Part shown: in pieces, positions 5,140 to 19,402 of the stretch
Layout: the number at the start of each line of letters is the position of its first letter
How positions within the stretch are numbered: the first letter of the stretch is position 1
NCBI GenBank assembly: GCA_009909085.1
Contig: JAAANX010000099.1
Span: 25,920-57,919 of the forward strand
DNA from: Cyanobacteria bacterium GSL.Bin1
GTDB lineage: Bacteria > Cyanobacteriota > Cyanobacteriia > Cyanobacteriales > Rubidibacteraceae
Reading direction: 5' to 3'
DNA: 32,000 nt
The notes under the pieces: model-generated
The model's input: only the letters and a program-made list of their open reading frames with translations
Databases searched by the model: none
What the model was told of the DNA's origin: nothing
Program-made: the position numbers and the translations under genes

Positions 5140-5401
5140 AATAAAAACTAATTTTAGTCCCGCCGCAGGGGTGAGAAATGAAAAGGCCTGTCTCGTCAAA
5201 CGGTTTAGCGTGAATTAACGCTCTGTTCAACCAATGACGAACTTTCTCTAGAAAATCAGCCCGAAGATCTCACCCCAAAGGGAGTCAACTCGGGCAGCAA
5301 GCTTGAGAGAAAGGGCGAGAAAATGTCAAGACAGTCAAAATTGACGTTTATACCGCTCTTTTGCCTAAAACAAAAGCGTTTACATTTAGGAGGAACAAAC
5401 A

Positions 5402-11261: not shown

Positions 11262-11420
11262 ATGATCAAGGTGGTTCTAGATACATCGGTGTTTGTTTCC
11301 GCGCTGTTGAGCCGAAACCCTAAAACAGCTCCCAATCAAATTTTGGAGGGGTGGCAACAAGGCGCTTTTTCCCTCGTCATTTATTATTTCTCAAGTTTTA
11401 TCACGGGACGCAAGTTTTAA
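11262..11420 (+). pseudogene. Truncated PIN-domain toxin gene (N-terminal roughly 40 aa retained)
   Basis: MIKVVLDTSVFVSALLSRNPKTAPNQILEGWQQGAFSLVI matches the N-terminus of PIN-family TA toxins, which are about 140 aa when intact. The frame then runs into unrelated sequence and stops after 52 codons. Confidence 0.6.
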
Positions 11421-11445
11421 CCCCTAATCTGTTTCTCAAGAGATT

Positions 11446-11775
11446 CCGTAACGATTGAAAAGCAAGCAAAGCGCGTAGGTCTCCAGACCGAGCCGTAGGC
11501 ATCGCGCTCAGTAGAAAAAGGATTAACGGGACTTAGACAAAAAAACAACAAGAAAACAGCCTCAAACACAGTCATGGCAATGAATTTACACCAACCCCCT
11601 AAAAATCGCTGAAACCCAGCTATATCCAGAAAACTGCTCAATCGAAGTAAAATAACTACTGTGTAAGGGTTTGAGACTGTTTTTGCCTCACGATTGTTTA
11701 AGTCCCGTTAACTATTGAAAAGCCTGTCAGTTAAGAATCCTAGACTTGCTCAGTAGGGATTACTTAAAATTCATG
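11446..11775. repeat. Patch of nested direct and inverted short repeats (MITE-like element)
   Basis: Inverted arms TTAACGGGACTTAGAC / AAAACAGCCTCAAACACAGT (11523-11572) pair with ACTGTGTAAGGGTTTGAGACTGTTTTT / GTTTAAGTCCCGTTAA (11658-11711). Direct repeats are CCGTAACGATTGAAAAGC (11446) vs CCGTTAACTATTGAAAAGC (11705), and GCTCAGTAG..GGATTA at 11506 and 11748. Confidence 0.45.
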
Positions 11776-11812
11776 TTACCTTAAGGGAATTCATCTAAAA
11801 TAGCCTGCAGAA

Positions 11813-14697: not shown

Positions 14698-15945
14698 ATG
14701 AACAGCCAACTCTTGTTAGAAAAAGCGCAAACAGCACTCTTTCCAATTTTTTCGAGAATTGACACCAAGGTCAAGCATAACGCAAAAAAAGTTCTGGAAG
14801 CATTTCGACAAGAACGGGTAGGCGTACATCATTTTGCTAGCGTTAGCGGTTATGGACATGATGATTTAGGGCGGGATACCCTTGATCGGGCTTTTGCTAG
14901 GGTGATGGGGGCTCAAGCAGCAGCAGTACGGGTACAGTTGGTTTCGGGAACTCACGCGATCGCGTGTGGTTTATTTGGCGTCCTGCGTCCCGGAGATGAA
15001 ATGCTGGCAGTAGCGGGAAAACCTTATGATACTCTTGAGGAAGTCATTGGTTTACGGGAATCCGCACCCGGATCGCTGAAAGATTTCGGAATTTCTTATC
15101 GAGAACTGGCTCTTACCTCTCAAGGCAGTCTTGATTGGGACGCCTTAGCAACAGCCATCAGACCGAAGACTCGTTTAGTGTTTATTCAACGCTCTTGTGG
15201 CTATACCTGGCGCGAGAGTTTATCCATTGCTGAAATTCAAAAAATTGTGGAAGTGGTCAAGGGGCAAAACCCCAATACCATCTGCTTTGTCGATAACTGT
15301 TACGGGGAGTTTGTGGATACCATCGAACCGCCAGTGGTTGGGGCAGATTTAATTGCCGGTTCTTTAATCAAAAATCCGGGTGGCACGATTGTTACGGCAG
15401 GCGGATATATCGCGGGACGAAAAGACTTAGTAGAAGCCGCTTGTTGCCGTCTCACTGCACCGGGAATTGGTAGTGAGGGGGGAGCGACGTTTGACCAGAA
15501 TCGGCTCTTATTTCAAGGACTTTTCTTGGCGCCGCAAATGGTAGGAGAAGCGATTAAAGGGACTCATTTGGTTGCTCATGTCTTCCAACAACTGGGTTAT
15601 CCGGTGAACCCACTTCCTGAAACCCCTCGTCGCGATGTGATTCAAGCCATTAAATTAGGTAGTAAAGAAAAATTGCTGACCTTTTGTCGCGCGCTGCAGC
15701 AACAATCGCCAGTGGGGTCATATCTTGATCCTGTTCCCGCCCAAATGCCCGGTTATGAAAGTCAGTTGGTGATGGCGGGGGGAACCTTTATTGATGGCAG
15801 CACTTCCGAGTTATCTGCCGATGGACCCCTAAGAGAACCGTATTTGGTTTTTGTGCAGGGGGGAACCCATTGGACTCATTGCGCGATCGCGCTAGAAGCA
15901 ATTATTGATGCCTTTACTCAGCAAGAGAAAGCAGAAGAATCATAA
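14698..15945 (+). CDS. PLP-dependent methionine-gamma-lyase-family protein (YnbB / aluminium-resistance-like)
   Basis: ASVSGYGHDDLGRDTLDRAF..VMGA..A.VR.QLVSGTHAI is characteristic of the YnbB-like family. I prefer the ATG at 14698 to the TTG at 14680. Confidence 0.75.
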   Translation: MNSQLLLEKAQTALFPIFSRIDTKVKHNAKKVLEAFRQERVGVHHFASVSGYGHDDLGRDTLDRAFARVMGAQAAAVRVQLVSGTHAIACGLFGVLRPGDEMLAVAGKPYDTLEEVIGLRESAPGSLKDFGISYRELALTSQGSLDWDALATAIRPKTRLVFIQRSCGYTWRESLSIAEIQKIVEVVKGQNPNTICFVDNCYGEFVDTIEPPVVGADLIAGSLIKNPGGTIVTAGGYIAGRKDLVEAACCRLTAPGIGSEGGATFDQNRLLFQGLFLAPQMVGEAIKGTHLVAHVFQQLGYPVNPLPETPRRDVIQAIKLGSKEKLLTFCRALQQQSPVGSYLDPVPAQMPGYESQLVMAGGTFIDGSTSELSADGPLREPYLVFVQGGTHWTHCAIALEAIIDAFTQQEKAEES

Positions 15946-17238
15946 TTTTTTACGTCTCATCCTTGGGGCAATGGTATGAGAATTAACCCCATAAAATTGA
16001 GCAGCTTTTGACATTTCTAAGTTCAATAATTCAGTATTTCCTAAATGAAACGTTTGCTCTAATCGTAATGGTTCAACATTTAAAGCTTGTCTAACTTGTT
16101 CTGCCACTGCTTTAGCCAGTAAGGGCGGAACCGAATTTCCAATTTGTCGAAACCCATGCCATTTTGTGACATGAAATCGAAACCAATCGGGATAAGAATG
16201 AAGTCGAGCCGCTTCTCGGACTGTAATACATCTTGGAAGATAAGGATGAATGGGGCGGGGCGAAGTAAAAGCACCTCGATTACTGGGCGTTCCCGCCCTT
16301 AACGTATTACAAATTCCCTCAGAATCAAGTTTATAAAAACGGCTAATCGGTTCAGTTTTTCCAGGTGGAGTTGCAGCGAATCTCGCCATTGATTTTTCTG
16401 TATGTTTTGTTCTCAAGCTAGCAGTTAAGAGACTCGAATCATAGTAACGGTAATAACTATAATCATCTTTAACCTCTCCAGTTTTTCGTAATTGATGACT
16501 ATAGTAACTGGGAGTTCCAAATTCCGCTTTTACCGTATCTTGTGTCAAAAGTTCTGGATAGTTTTCAATAGTCGGTAAATCGGTAATTGCATCCCCAACA
16601 GTCGGACTTTCCAGTAAATCATGTTTTAATAATGTCACTTTGCTTTTTGCTGGTCTCGTCAAGTCTAAAGGATACTCAGGTAGAACTTGATCATGACGAC
16701 ATCCCAGTAAAAAAAGACGTTTGCGATTTTGAGGAACGCCAAAATTAGCAGCATTTAAAACTTGATACGGGTGTTGGACATGATAGTGATTCTCCTGAAA
16801 CGCACCGATTAATTCTTCTAGTAATTGCTGTGACTTTCCGATTGCCATGCCAGCAACATTTTCCATGACAAAATATCGGGGTTGGAGTTCGAGGACTAAC
16901 CGTAAAAAGTGAAAGACTAAGGCATTGCGATCATCGGTTAAAACGCGTTTGCCAATTAAAGAAAACCCCTGACAAGGCGGTCCACCAAAAACGACATCAA
17001 TCTCTTGAGTTTGAATCGCAGAAGATTGTCGAATTTCATTTCCTGTTAATTGCGCCGCATCTTTACAAAGCACTGACCAAAACGGAAAATTAAATTCATG
17101 AGCTGCTGCATGGATGGGGTCAATTTCTACAGAAGCTAAAACATCAAACCCTGCTTGTTCAAACCCTAAGGTCATACCTCCTACACCAGCGAATAGATCA
17201 ACCGCAATGGGACGTTTAGCTTGAAACTTGTTGCCCAT
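15940..17238 (-). CDS. DNA (cytosine-5) methyltransferase, orphan (no adjacent endonuclease)
   Basis: All the conserved C5-MTase motifs I looked for (I, IV, VI, VIII, IX-like, X) are present: DLFAGVGG (I), GGPPCQGFS (IV), ENV (VI), QNRKRLF (VIII), ITVREAARLHSYPD (IX-like), GNSVPPLLA (X). Confidence 0.9.
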   Translation of the reverse strand: MGNKFQAKRPIAVDLFAGVGGMTLGFEQAGFDVLASVEIDPIHAAAHEFNFPFWSVLCKDAAQLTGNEIRQSSAIQTQEIDVVFGGPPCQGFSLIGKRVLTDDRNALVFHFLRLVLELQPRYFVMENVAGMAIGKSQQLLEELIGAFQENHYHVQHPYQVLNAANFGVPQNRKRLFLLGCRHDQVLPEYPLDLTRPAKSKVTLLKHDLLESPTVGDAITDLPTIENYPELLTQDTVKAEFGTPSYYSHQLRKTGEVKDDYSYYRYYDSSLLTASLRTKHTEKSMARFAATPPGKTEPISRFYKLDSEGICNTLRAGTPSNRGAFTSPRPIHPYLPRCITVREAARLHSYPDWFRFHVTKWHGFRQIGNSVPPLLAKAVAEQVRQALNVEPLRLEQTFHLGNTELLNLEMSKAAQFYGVNSHTIAPRMRRKKL

Positions 17239-17311: not shown

Positions 17312-18433
17312 TTAGGTTTTTCCTAGAAGATAACGCTCAATAATGTTGACAATTCGCTGAGACGCTTGACCATCCCCAAACGGATTAATTGCCATTGCCA
17401 TGCGTTGATACATATCAGGATTGCTGAGTAACTCACTGGCTGCTTGCAAAATTTGGTGCGGCTTTGTTCCTACTAAGCGAGCAGTGCCAGCAGTTACCGC
17501 TTCAGTGCGTTCTGTATTGTCTCGCAACACTAAAACAGGCTTACCTAAACTAGGGGCTTCCTCTTGTAAGCCGCCCGAATCAGTTAATAATAAATAACAA
17601 CGTTGCATTGCCCCCACCAGTTGGGAATAGTCTAAGGGTTCGGTTAAAAAGACACGAGGATGATTGCCTAATGCTGCTTGAATCGGCTGACGAACGGTTG
17701 GGTTGCGATGGAGGGGCAGTAAGAGCGCTGTATCCGGAAATTTTTCTAAAATCAGGTGCAAGCCCTCAAGGATTTGAGTGAGTGGTTGACCCCAATTTTC
17801 CCGGCGATGAACGGTTGTGAGTAAAACGCGGTATTGATTCCAATTTAAACTGGGGATATTGCAAGGCGGGTGGCGACGTGCCATGGTGAGCAAGGCATCA
17901 ATCACCGTATTCCCAGTGAGATGAATTTCTCCGATCACCCCTGAATTTTCTAGATTTTTAACTGCTGCTTCTGTTGGGGCAAAATTAAGTTGAGCCAGTT
18001 GACCAATGAGGCGACGATTGGCTTCTTCCGGATAAGGGTTATACAAATTGTGAGAGCGGAGTCCGGCTTCAACGTGAGCCGTGGGAATTTGCTGATAAAA
18101 TGCTGCCAGTGTTGCCGCAAAAGCAGTGGTGGTATCTCCTTGCACAATGACCAAATTGGGCTGAATTTCAGTAAAAAGGTTTTCCAGCCCTTTTAAGCTG
18201 CGACAGGTAATGTCACTGAGGGTTTGTTCCGCTTGCATGATCTGCAAGTCTTGATCCGCTTCGAGATGAAAGAGGTGCATCACCTGAGCAACCATTTCTC
18301 GATGTTGTCCCGTCAGAATAACAGAGGTTTTCAGTTGGGAGGAACGTTGACATTGCTGAATGACCGGAGCCAGTTTAATGGCTTCCGGACGCGTTCCTAG
18401 GGTGATGCAGACCGTACAGGAGTCAACGTTCAT
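17312..18433 (-). CDS. wecB: UDP-N-acetylglucosamine 2-epimerase (non-hydrolysing)
   Basis: 373 aa with LGTRPEAIKLAPV, QHREM, VQGDTTT and HVEAGLRS motifs. Confidence 0.9.
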   Translation of the reverse strand: MNVDSCTVCITLGTRPEAIKLAPVIQQCQRSSQLKTSVILTGQHREMVAQVMHLFHLEADQDLQIMQAEQTLSDITCRSLKGLENLFTEIQPNLVIVQGDTTTAFAATLAAFYQQIPTAHVEAGLRSHNLYNPYPEEANRRLIGQLAQLNFAPTEAAVKNLENSGVIGEIHLTGNTVIDALLTMARRHPPCNIPSLNWNQYRVLLTTVHRRENWGQPLTQILEGLHLILEKFPDTALLLPLHRNPTVRQPIQAALGNHPRVFLTEPLDYSQLVGAMQRCYLLLTDSGGLQEEAPSLGKPVLVLRDNTERTEAVTAGTARLVGTKPHQILQAASELLSNPDMYQRMAMAINPFGDGQASQRIVNIIERYLLGKT

Positions 18434-18487
18434 GCCAATCCCCCAATGACATTTGACAGCAGAGAATACTCATGAAATTGTCTGACC

Positions 18488-18595
18488 GCGGAAGGCGGTG
18501 ACAGGCAAGCCTGCCGACCCAGCTGGAATCGAATTTCAGCTGGAAAGCGGCTGTGCCTTCCGCACCCGGAATTCGATTCCGGGGAACCTGTCACC
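18488..18595. other. Highly structured intergenic element (multi-hairpin; candidate cis-regulatory RNA or palindromic repeat unit)
   Basis: Long-range complementary pairs are GCGGAAGGC (18488-18496) with GCCTTCCGC (18555-18563), and GGTGACAGG (18497-18505) with CCTGTCACC (18587-18595). Local hairpins lie at 18502-18513, 18519-18543 (10 bp) and 18565-18583 (7 bp). Confidence 0.4.
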
Positions 18596-18646
18596 TGGAA
18601 AGAGGTATAAGGGGAGTTTAACATAAGTCGCTTGCTCTCCCAATTT

Positions 18647-19402
18647 TTACTTGTGGATTTTACCGAATCGTCGATCGCGCTGTTGATAAGCCAGGAGCGC
18701 TTGATGAAAGGCACTGCGGTCAAAATCAGGCCAGAGCGTATCGGTAACATAAATTTCGGCATAAGCCAGTTGCCACAGCAAGAAATTACTCAACCGCATT
18801 TCACCACTGGTGCGAATCAATAAATCGGGATCGGGCAAATTGGCAGTATAGAGATGTTGGGCAAATAGCTCCTCATCGAGCTGTTCTACAGTGATTTTTC
18901 CTTGTTGCACTTGCTGCGCGATCGCGCGACAAGCAGCAATAATTTCTTGTCTTCCCCCATAATTGGTCGCCACCGTAAATTCAATCCCTGTATTCTTCGC
19001 GGTTTGTTCCATTGCTTGCGCGATCACCGTTTGCAACGACTCTGGAAGCACGGTTAAATTCCCCACAAATCGAATCCGCACCTGTTTTTTCATCATTTCG
19101 GCGAGTTCTCGCTGTAAGACACGCTCAAACAAGGTCATCAAGAAATCCACTTCTTCTGAGGGGCGCCCCCAATTTTCCGTGGAAAAGGCATAAGCCATTA
19201 AGCCAGGAATTCCCCAATCTTGACAACAACGCAGCAAATCTTTGAGCGCATCAACGCCTTTCCGATGTCCCATCACTCGCGGAAATCCTCGTTTTCCTGC
19301 CCAACGACCATTACCATCCATGATCACCGCCACTTGTCGAGGAAGACGATTCGCATCTAAATCTGGGGGAAGCTGTTCTAATAGAGTGGGCTTAGTAGTC
19401 AT
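18647..19402 (-). CDS. uppS: Undecaprenyl diphosphate synthase (cis-isoprenyl transferase)
   Basis: 251 aa with the IMDGNGRWA motif and a typical UPPS C-terminus (RFGK). Confidence 0.93.

Follow-up and report, generated by a model that had tools for sequence, protein, structure and literature searches.

The hairpin-rich block between a cyanobacterial uppS and wecB gene is probably a nested pair of small dispersed DNA repeats

Introduction

The spacer between the uppS-like and wecB-like genes of the cyanobacterium GSL.Bin1 holds a dense block of hairpins with competing long-range pairings. The block raises the question whether it regulates the cell-envelope sugar gene that lies downstream of it or is a repeat that inserted there as DNA. 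A first-pass annotation, made from the sequence alone, offered three readings: a switch-like leader of wecB, an antisense small RNA, and a palindromic dispersed repeat. We analysed the block in its window, the whole stretch of 32,000 nt under study, which comes from assembly G000 (4.8 Mb), and compared it with the rest of that assembly and with related genomes. Positions are window coordinates unless a contig is named.

Results

Open-reading-frame and Pfam calls confirmed that the spacer (18434-18646, 213 nt) separates two minus-strand genes. Upstream lies the gene of a uppS-like undecaprenyl-diphosphate synthase (18647-19402; Prenyltransf, E=1.2e-89), on the same strand as the gene of a wecB-like UDP-GlcNAc 2-epimerase (17312-18433; Epimerase_2, E=2.4e-110). 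The gene string is co-directional and, on the minus strand, the insertion point described below precedes the wecB start codon by 52 nt. Directly downstream of wecB, on the same strand, is a gene for a C-5 cytosine DNA methyltransferase (15940-17238, minus). A 110-codon minus-strand open reading frame (ORF; 18430-18762) runs from inside uppS across the spacer and the element to the wecB start; it had no Pfam match and is probably spurious, the stop-poor repeat keeping the frame open.

All the repeats and hairpins listed in the first-pass annotation were found where it had placed them. Two abutting 9-nt segments, a (GCGGAAGGC, 18488-18496) and b (GGTGACAGG, 18497-18505), are 100% complementary to a' (GCCTTCCGC, 18555-18563; repeat I6) and b' (CCTGTCACC, 18587-18595; repeat I5), respectively, and the four follow each other in the order a-b-a'-b'. 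A CAGG/CCTG mini-hairpin occupies 18502-18513. Of the two longer hairpins, that at 18519-18543 has 11-nt arms that are 91% complementary and include one G-T pair (repeat I3), and that at 18565-18583 is perfect (repeat I12); they have the core GGAATCGAATT in common, in opposite orientations (repeat I1). On either strand, none of 200 dinucleotide shuffles folded as well as the 141-nt stretch around the block (plus strand, z = -3.4; minus or mRNA strand, z = -3.5 at -56 kcal/mol).

So dense a structure, with pairings that compete, in front of a cell-envelope sugar gene speaks for a dedicated riboswitch- or switch-like 5' leader of wecB, in which the a/a' and b/b' helices would alternate on a ligand or signal. 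However, a search of both strands of 18000-19100 against Rfam (cmscan, E<=10) gave no family, the only match being a chance one to a lncRNA elsewhere in the stretch, and nine other copies of the element had no Rfam match at E<=0.1. ARAGORN found no tRNA or tmRNA, and a scan for terminators found no terminator-like site at the element and no U tract of that kind after it.

We therefore looked at the spacer in other genomes, searching 901 nt around it in 40 relatives. The closest relative, G001 (96% identical), is colinear with the window across the spacer. In G002, G003 and G005, which belong to the same genus, just 2-3 nt separate the left flank (query 1-388) from the right one (query 499/500-900): their alignment (A1) reads ...GAAATTGYCTG|ACCCA... 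with nothing between, where G000 and G001 carry exactly 108 additional bases. These bases (18487-18594, plus strand) make up the whole composite, a module B that carries a module A. With ACC at either end (18485-18487 and 18593-18595), the junction may slide by up to 3 nt, and the limits of the insertion agree to within 3 nt with those first given for the block. In the more distant genus members G004, G009 and G010 the corresponding interval is much shorter, and a covariance model of module A (R1) did not find the module in it. Since the spacers of relatives are empty, parsimony favours a single insertion on the branch of G000 and G001. Judged from the aligned genomes, the composite was inserted as DNA between uppS and wecB, directly behind an AC dinucleotide (CTGAC^C), in the common ancestor of G000 and G001 and after the split from G002, G003 and G005.

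Parts of the block match about 40 places in the G000 assembly. Coverage by these matches is modular, with about 17 over 18511-18552, about 12 over 18565-18587 and few over 18483-18497; the remainder of the spacer has 0 matches elsewhere in G000. According to the first-pass annotation, copies in unrelated places and a lack of conservation in orthologous spacers would speak against a dedicated regulator. We found both, and its third reading, a dispersed palindromic repeat, was the correct one.

The boundary between the two modules is given by a B-only copy in G001 (contig C21), whose arms are 100% identical to those of the window copy and in which CAAGC is directly joined to CCCGG. Compared with this twin, the window has 54 additional bases (18511-18564) exactly between CAAGC and CCCGG. 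These bases are module A, which lies nested in B in opposite orientation (minus strand), as indicated by the twin, by the other A copies and by covariation; A-only copies occur in many unrelated contexts. In the window, module B begins with a leader mini-hairpin, ACCGC-GGAAG-GCGGT (18485-18499, plus strand), which includes segment a, is paired in the plus-strand minimum-free-energy fold and overlaps with its 3' arm the start of the B outer stem. The 5' half of B (18497-18510, plus strand) consists of the outer-stem arm b (repeat I5) and the internal-loop bases CAAGC. Module A follows, with an outer stem (18511-18516 with 18548-18553), the inner hairpin at 18519-18543 and a small hairpin, TGC-CTTCC-GCA (18554-18564), which includes a'. 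The 3' half of B (18565-18595, plus strand; repeats I12 and I5) completes the composite with the inner hairpin CCCGGAAT-TCG-ATTCCGGG (18565-18583), G-AA and the arm b'.

Other copies have the same layouts. Module B (54 nt, about 12-16 copies) consists of a leader (ACCGC-GGAAK-GCGGT or ACC-AAC-GGT; ACCGC-GGAAT-GCGGT or the short form precedes other B copies), an outer stem, CAAG, an inner hairpin that is usually CCCCGGAAT-N3-ATTCCGGGG, AA and a closing arm. The outer stem, of 8-9 bp, varies in sequence among copies and is self-complementary in all of them. A strict structural scan gave 9 intact B-only copies, besides which there are 2 composites and several variants. Module A (54 nt, about 21 copies in G000 by nhmmer and covariance model) consists of a 6-bp outer stem, CTGCCG/CGGCAG with covarying variants, AC, an 11-bp inner hairpin with the apex GAAT-N3-ATTC, AAAG, a closing arm and a small hairpin, (G)TGC-ATTCC-GCA(C). 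On its opposite strand A reads like B, with a small GGAAT-loop hairpin ahead of a long one whose internal loop is asymmetric. Both modules thus have a small leader hairpin with a GGAAK loop and a long hairpin with a covarying outer stem and the apex GAAT-N3-ATTC, and in both the asymmetric internal loop is conserved (CAAG/AA in B, AC/AAAG in A). Genome-wide, GGAAT-loop mini-hairpins are about 1.5-2-fold commoner than control loops, a signal too weak to use alone. Two further inverted repeats of the window (5168-5276 and 11340-11800) proved unrelated to the family.

Nesting goes further in a second composite of B and A, at G000 C171, where A is interrupted, between GGAAAGCGGC and the small hairpin, by a third small module (net +30 nt, CTGGAGCGAGGAGCGAAGCGACGC...TGAAGA), which makes three nesting levels. 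Copies of A that carry the third module lie at C171:29051-29176 (L002) and on C104, C165, C79 and C209 of G000, and on C16 and C31 of G001 (L204, L205). Hairpin repeats with the leader TGACCGCGGAATGCGGTCA and different cores (CAGGYA-hairpin-GTAC, or a TCCGCC...GGCGGG inner hairpin) were seen at G000 C186:~13659, on C155 (minus strand) and at C168:65000-65039, which suggests that they are part of a wider superfamily. A 172-nt repeat, 97-98% identical in four places of G000 (C58:3266-3440, C130, C159 and C197), was considered as a long parent element and rejected: it is not an insertion sequence (IS) but a mosaic of small modules, one of them an interrupted module A. Each module of this mosaic also occurs singly elsewhere. 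On metagenome contigs (L244, L243), some A copies occupy the middle of a palindrome of the host (CGATACAA...TTTTGTATCG) or are embedded in tandem repeats that resemble TTGAACA, a setting that recalls reports on the small dispersed repeats (SDRs) of Nostoc.

The modular structure explains the competing pairings. The 9-mers a and a' are parts of the small hairpins of B and A, in opposite orientation, and b and b' form the outer stem of B; the a/a' and b/b' helices compete because two related modules are juxtaposed in opposite orientation. The B-only twin in G001 has no a', and the a/a' helix cannot form there; in the C171 composite a and a' match at only 6 of 9 positions (read by eye). Of the mutually exclusive pairings that had been described, both 9-mer pairs are thus real and fully complementary, but they are not a conserved switch. 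A switch-like leader of wecB also sits badly with the spacers of G002, G003 and G005, which are without the block, with the occurrence of the same modules in unrelated intergenic regions and in genes, in both orientations, and with the fact that a' belongs to a separately inserted module. As far as these sequences tell, the empty orthologous sites and the dispersed copies have already refuted such a leader, and we consider it extremely improbable.

The stems of the family covary. In 13 A copies from six sources, 8 out of 20 pairs showed double-sided compensatory changes and 98.5% of the cells were paired; slid controls all collapsed to 18-36%. The sole G-U among these 13 copies is that of the window. 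Similarly, 198 of the 200 stem cells in ten full-length A copies of G000 are Watson-Crick, and both exceptions (G18526-T18536 and T18512-T18552) fall in the window copy, which is more degenerate than any other full-length copy in G000. In 18 distinct copies from metagenomes, Watson-Crick pairs fill 357 of 360 cells, and neither G-T nor A-C is seen. G-U pairs are normally tolerated where selection acts on the RNA fold of a single strand. Strictly Watson-Crick stems, use of both orientations and copies inside genes therefore fit a DNA hairpin or palindrome better than a one-strand RNA fold, and on this comparison of copies the structure is apparently kept at the DNA level. Conserved unpaired bases together with covarying stems would also fit a function of the family at the RNA level, the only arguments against which are that G-U pairs are absent, that both orientations are used and that copies lie in-frame in genes.

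These results also bear on the proposal of a small antisense RNA, transcribed from the plus strand from a TTGACA box and folding into the hairpins. The box is present (18453-18458) and conserved in relatives, and only in a plus-strand RNA would the G-T pair be a valid wobble. However, a promoter scan found no plus-strand promoter at the spacer, and TTGACA is conserved also in genomes without the element, and is hence not part of it. The G-T pair, which had been taken as a hint that the fold is slightly better on the plus strand or as DNA, is a private point mutation of the window copy away from the family consensus and carries no strand information. There is, in our estimate, next to no chance that such an RNA accounts for the block.

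A repeat that arrived as mobile DNA may still have been exapted, and would now affect the transcript of uppS and wecB in cis: it could stabilise the mRNA, serve as a processing site or an attenuator, or modulate wecB translation. REP and MITE elements act in cis on transcripts in other bacteria. The composite is kept in both G000 and G001, it stands close upstream of wecB in a co-directional gene string, where strong structure could influence expression, and its minus-strand fold is very stable. Effects of MITEs or REPs near genes on mRNA stability are reported (PMC3733652; PMC10969869). On the other hand, relatives manage without the element, no terminator-like U tract follows it, and its window copy is, as noted, unusually degenerate. 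Moreover, the elements of G000 and G001 differ at 4 of 108 positions, and 3 of these differences break stem pairs while none is compensatory; the window copy is therefore drifting, and we infer that it is decaying rather than maintained. Since it is decaying and is absent from close relatives, we regard it as a passenger, and think its exaptation improbable. Presumably the intercistronic RNA of uppS and wecB includes the element, whose effect on wecB expression, if any, would be incidental; that there is such an incidental effect also seems unlikely to us.

Many copies lie inside genes. A crude ORF call put 11 of the 23 A copies and 4 of the 12 B copies in ORFs of at least 100 codons, and Pfam identified nine genuine host genes: one for a GH38 alpha-mannosidase, one for a histidine kinase with PAS, GAF and receiver domains, three tnpB (OrfB_IS605) genes and four for DDE transposases. 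In the GH38 gene a 54-nt module B is inserted in-frame in G000 only (C139:18629-18684; L217:1109-1164), where it adds 18 residues (TAECGRAQAPELDSGERS); G001, G003, G005 and G009 have the empty site, GTTATCCTC^ACAGAAAAAG. The hybrid histidine kinase has a 48-nt short-leader module B in-frame between PAS and GAF (G000 C12:34827-34874; L216 ~1831-1878), and this insert (+48 nt) is found in G000 and G001 and not in G005. In tnpB, one lineage carries module A in-frame (+54 nt), as opposed to three paralogs (about 70% identity) without an insert. The domains on either side of these inserts are intact. The A copies in tnpB lie at C113:47079-47133, C201:491-545, C11:4563-4619 and C104:4699-4799 in G000 and at C1:1410272-1410326 (L190) in G003. 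A 102-nt composite in G005 corresponds to an empty site on contig C48 of G000. All the verified insert sizes (48, 54, 54, 102, 108 and, for the third module, +30) are multiples of three. That the six frames are stop-free as an adaptation to coding DNA was an idea we dropped: composition-matched shuffles do no worse. The copies on C121 and C75 sit in rearranged, repeat-rich islands.

To see how far the family extends, we used R1 and a looser pattern. R1 found about 21 distinct A copies in G000 (24 matches including reverse-strand duplicates in one run, 21 in another). Within the genus, Dactylococcopsis, the matches numbered 13 in G001, 9 in G005, 7 in G006, 4 in G004, 2 each in G002 and G009 and one each in G003, G007 and G008; G010-G012 had 0. 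Four other genera of the family gave 0 A copies, and among 24 other genomes of the order one had a match. R1 gave no A copy in 148 genomes from 78 further cyanobacterial genera, so module A is not widespread in the phylum as sampled. The loose-pattern scan of named genomes gave at least 120 matches, mostly chance ones in GC-rich genomes; among the matches listed, seven, all cyanobacterial, were real. These A copies, which have covarying stems, come from two uncultured Dactylococcopsis metagenome-assembled genomes (MAGs), Crocosphaera watsonii WH 8501 and C. chwakensis CCY0110, and from a Lyngbya, a Chroococcidiopsidaceae and a Chroococcales MAG. Viral contigs had no module A. High sequence conservation, patchy spread and widely varying copy number are together a signature of mobile DNA.

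At the four B-type junctions (the spacer, GH38, the histidine kinase and the 102-nt composite), AC stands on both sides, and the 5' flanks of B copies read TYTGAC; the tnpB junction of module A does not have AC on both sides. The B-type junctions fit equally a 2-bp duplication of AC and insertion 3' of NNAC by an element that ends in NNAC. A trans-acting enzyme would move members of the family by recognising their folded DNA together with the unpaired bases that are conserved, and would insert them 3' of NNAC, either without duplication or with one of 2 bp. A single-strand transposase of the HUH/Y1 type is a candidate for this enzyme, though a doubtful one. G000 does have Y1_Tnp (PF01797) genes, and the flanks of four of them contain no A or B. 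The ends of Y1_Tnp/TnpB insertion sequences were rejected as the source of A and B, which they do not resemble in G000 and with whose copy numbers theirs do not co-vary. Nor does the number of Y1_Tnp genes track that of A copies: G001 has 13 A copies and only Y1_Tnp fragments, and G003 has one A copy and nine Y1_Tnp matches. We found no cognate TnpA among the Y1_Tnp genes, no parent IS in G000, and no transposase or other enzyme linked to the family. A host tnpB gene with module A adjoins a Y1 tnpA gene on C104 of G000 and in G003, so that an IS605-type element could carry A between genomes; such ferrying is speculation.

Discussion

The above results suggest, with a probability that we put at about 0.9, that the block between uppS and wecB is a selfish, non-autonomous DNA repeat, a module B carrying a module A in opposite orientation, and not a dedicated regulator. 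A dispersed repeat mistaken for a possible riboregulator is an ordinary outcome, and the immediate gain is that a false candidate is removed from the annotation and its mutually exclusive helices are traced to two related repeats that nest head to tail in opposite orientation. Beyond this locus, exact filled and empty sites document a family of hairpin elements of about 50 nt, active at the species level in halophilic cyanobacteria, that nest mutually and lengthen ordinary enzymes and transposases by 16-18 in-frame residues. Elements of this sort give rise to protein insertions peculiar to a lineage and inflate the structure signals of intergenic DNA.

It is possible, and we propose it tentatively, that A, B and the sister types with a CGCGGAATGCG-type leader form an undescribed superfamily of self-nesting hairpin mini-elements. 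Features that suggest it are insert sizes in multiples of three, insertion after AC in intergenic DNA as well as in-frame in genes, strictly Watson-Crick stems that enclose unpaired, conserved bases, and patchy occurrence in distant cyanobacteria (Dactylococcopsis, Crocosphaera, and Lyngbya-, Chroococcidiopsis- and Chroococcales-like MAGs). Members may travel between genomes as passengers inside tnpB genes of the IS605 type. The sizes in multiples of three, the self-nesting in opposite orientation, the conserved unpaired bases and the patchy spread across orders make the elements worth following up. Together with the Nostoc SDRs, A and B pose the question of how DNA so small is mobilised, and their conserved unpaired bases and GGAAT motifs are concrete handles for the responsible protein.

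Among known systems, IS200/IS605 elements (by the mechanism of IS608 and ISDra2) have hairpin ends and insert after a short specific sequence with no obvious target duplication. A and B resemble palindromes derived from such elements in their hairpin ends, in a putative insertion after NNAC, in a 3' end that resembles the target and in a 5' flank able to pair with an inner part of the element. By their junctions and this possible flank pairing they recall IS200/IS605 chemistry, as a resemblance only: unlike such derivatives, A and B have no parent IS with matching ends and are far smaller, and a 2-bp duplication of AC fits their junctions equally. REPs and REPINs are short imperfect palindromes in many copies, often in inverted pairs, and are proposed to be moved in trans by the single-strand HUH transposase RAYT (Y1) (PMC3116915; PMC3733652). 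A and B are likewise short imperfect palindromes in many copies, but they have no consistent GTAG/CGTC tag (just two B copies, on C75 and C174, have GTAG upstream), they are not restricted to extragenic DNA, and neither the flanks nor the number of Y1_Tnp genes connects them with a RAYT-like system. The cyanobacterial MITEs Nezha and MaeMITE measure 100-400 bp and have terminal inverted repeats that match an IS and clear target duplications (PMC3184786). A and B share with MITEs that they are non-autonomous and structured, vary in copy number between strains and leave filled and empty sites between relatives; unlike MITEs, they lack terminal inverted repeats matching an IS, and at most the dinucleotide AC is repeated at their junctions. 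Membership in REP/REPIN-RAYT systems or among classical MITEs thus fails on defining features.

By analogy, the closest known systems are the SDRs of Nostoc and the Rickettsia palindromic elements (RPEs). SDR1-8 of Nostoc punctiforme and relatives, reportedly described by Elhai et al. in 2008 (Genome Res 18:1484, by way of PMC3116915 and PMC3733652), are 21-27 nt long, and are said to show compensatory stem changes, filled and empty sites, and nesting in other copies, repeats and palindromes; we know of no enzyme that moves them. A and B are set apart from SDRs, as these are described, by their size of 48-54 nt and their two-hairpin architecture, but like them are very small cyanobacterial hairpins with compensatory changes, mobility seen in filled and empty sites, nesting, and no known mobilising enzyme. 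RPEs are summarised as palindromic non-coding repeats of about 100-150 bp, confined to Rickettsia, that lie in-frame in unrelated protein genes and are read through as peptide segments (PMC10969869). Although A and B are two to three times smaller, nest in one another, belong to another phylum and have unrelated sequences, they too lie in-frame in conserved protein genes and are absent from the orthologs or paralogs of these, as in GH38 (+54), the histidine kinase (+48) and tnpB (+54).
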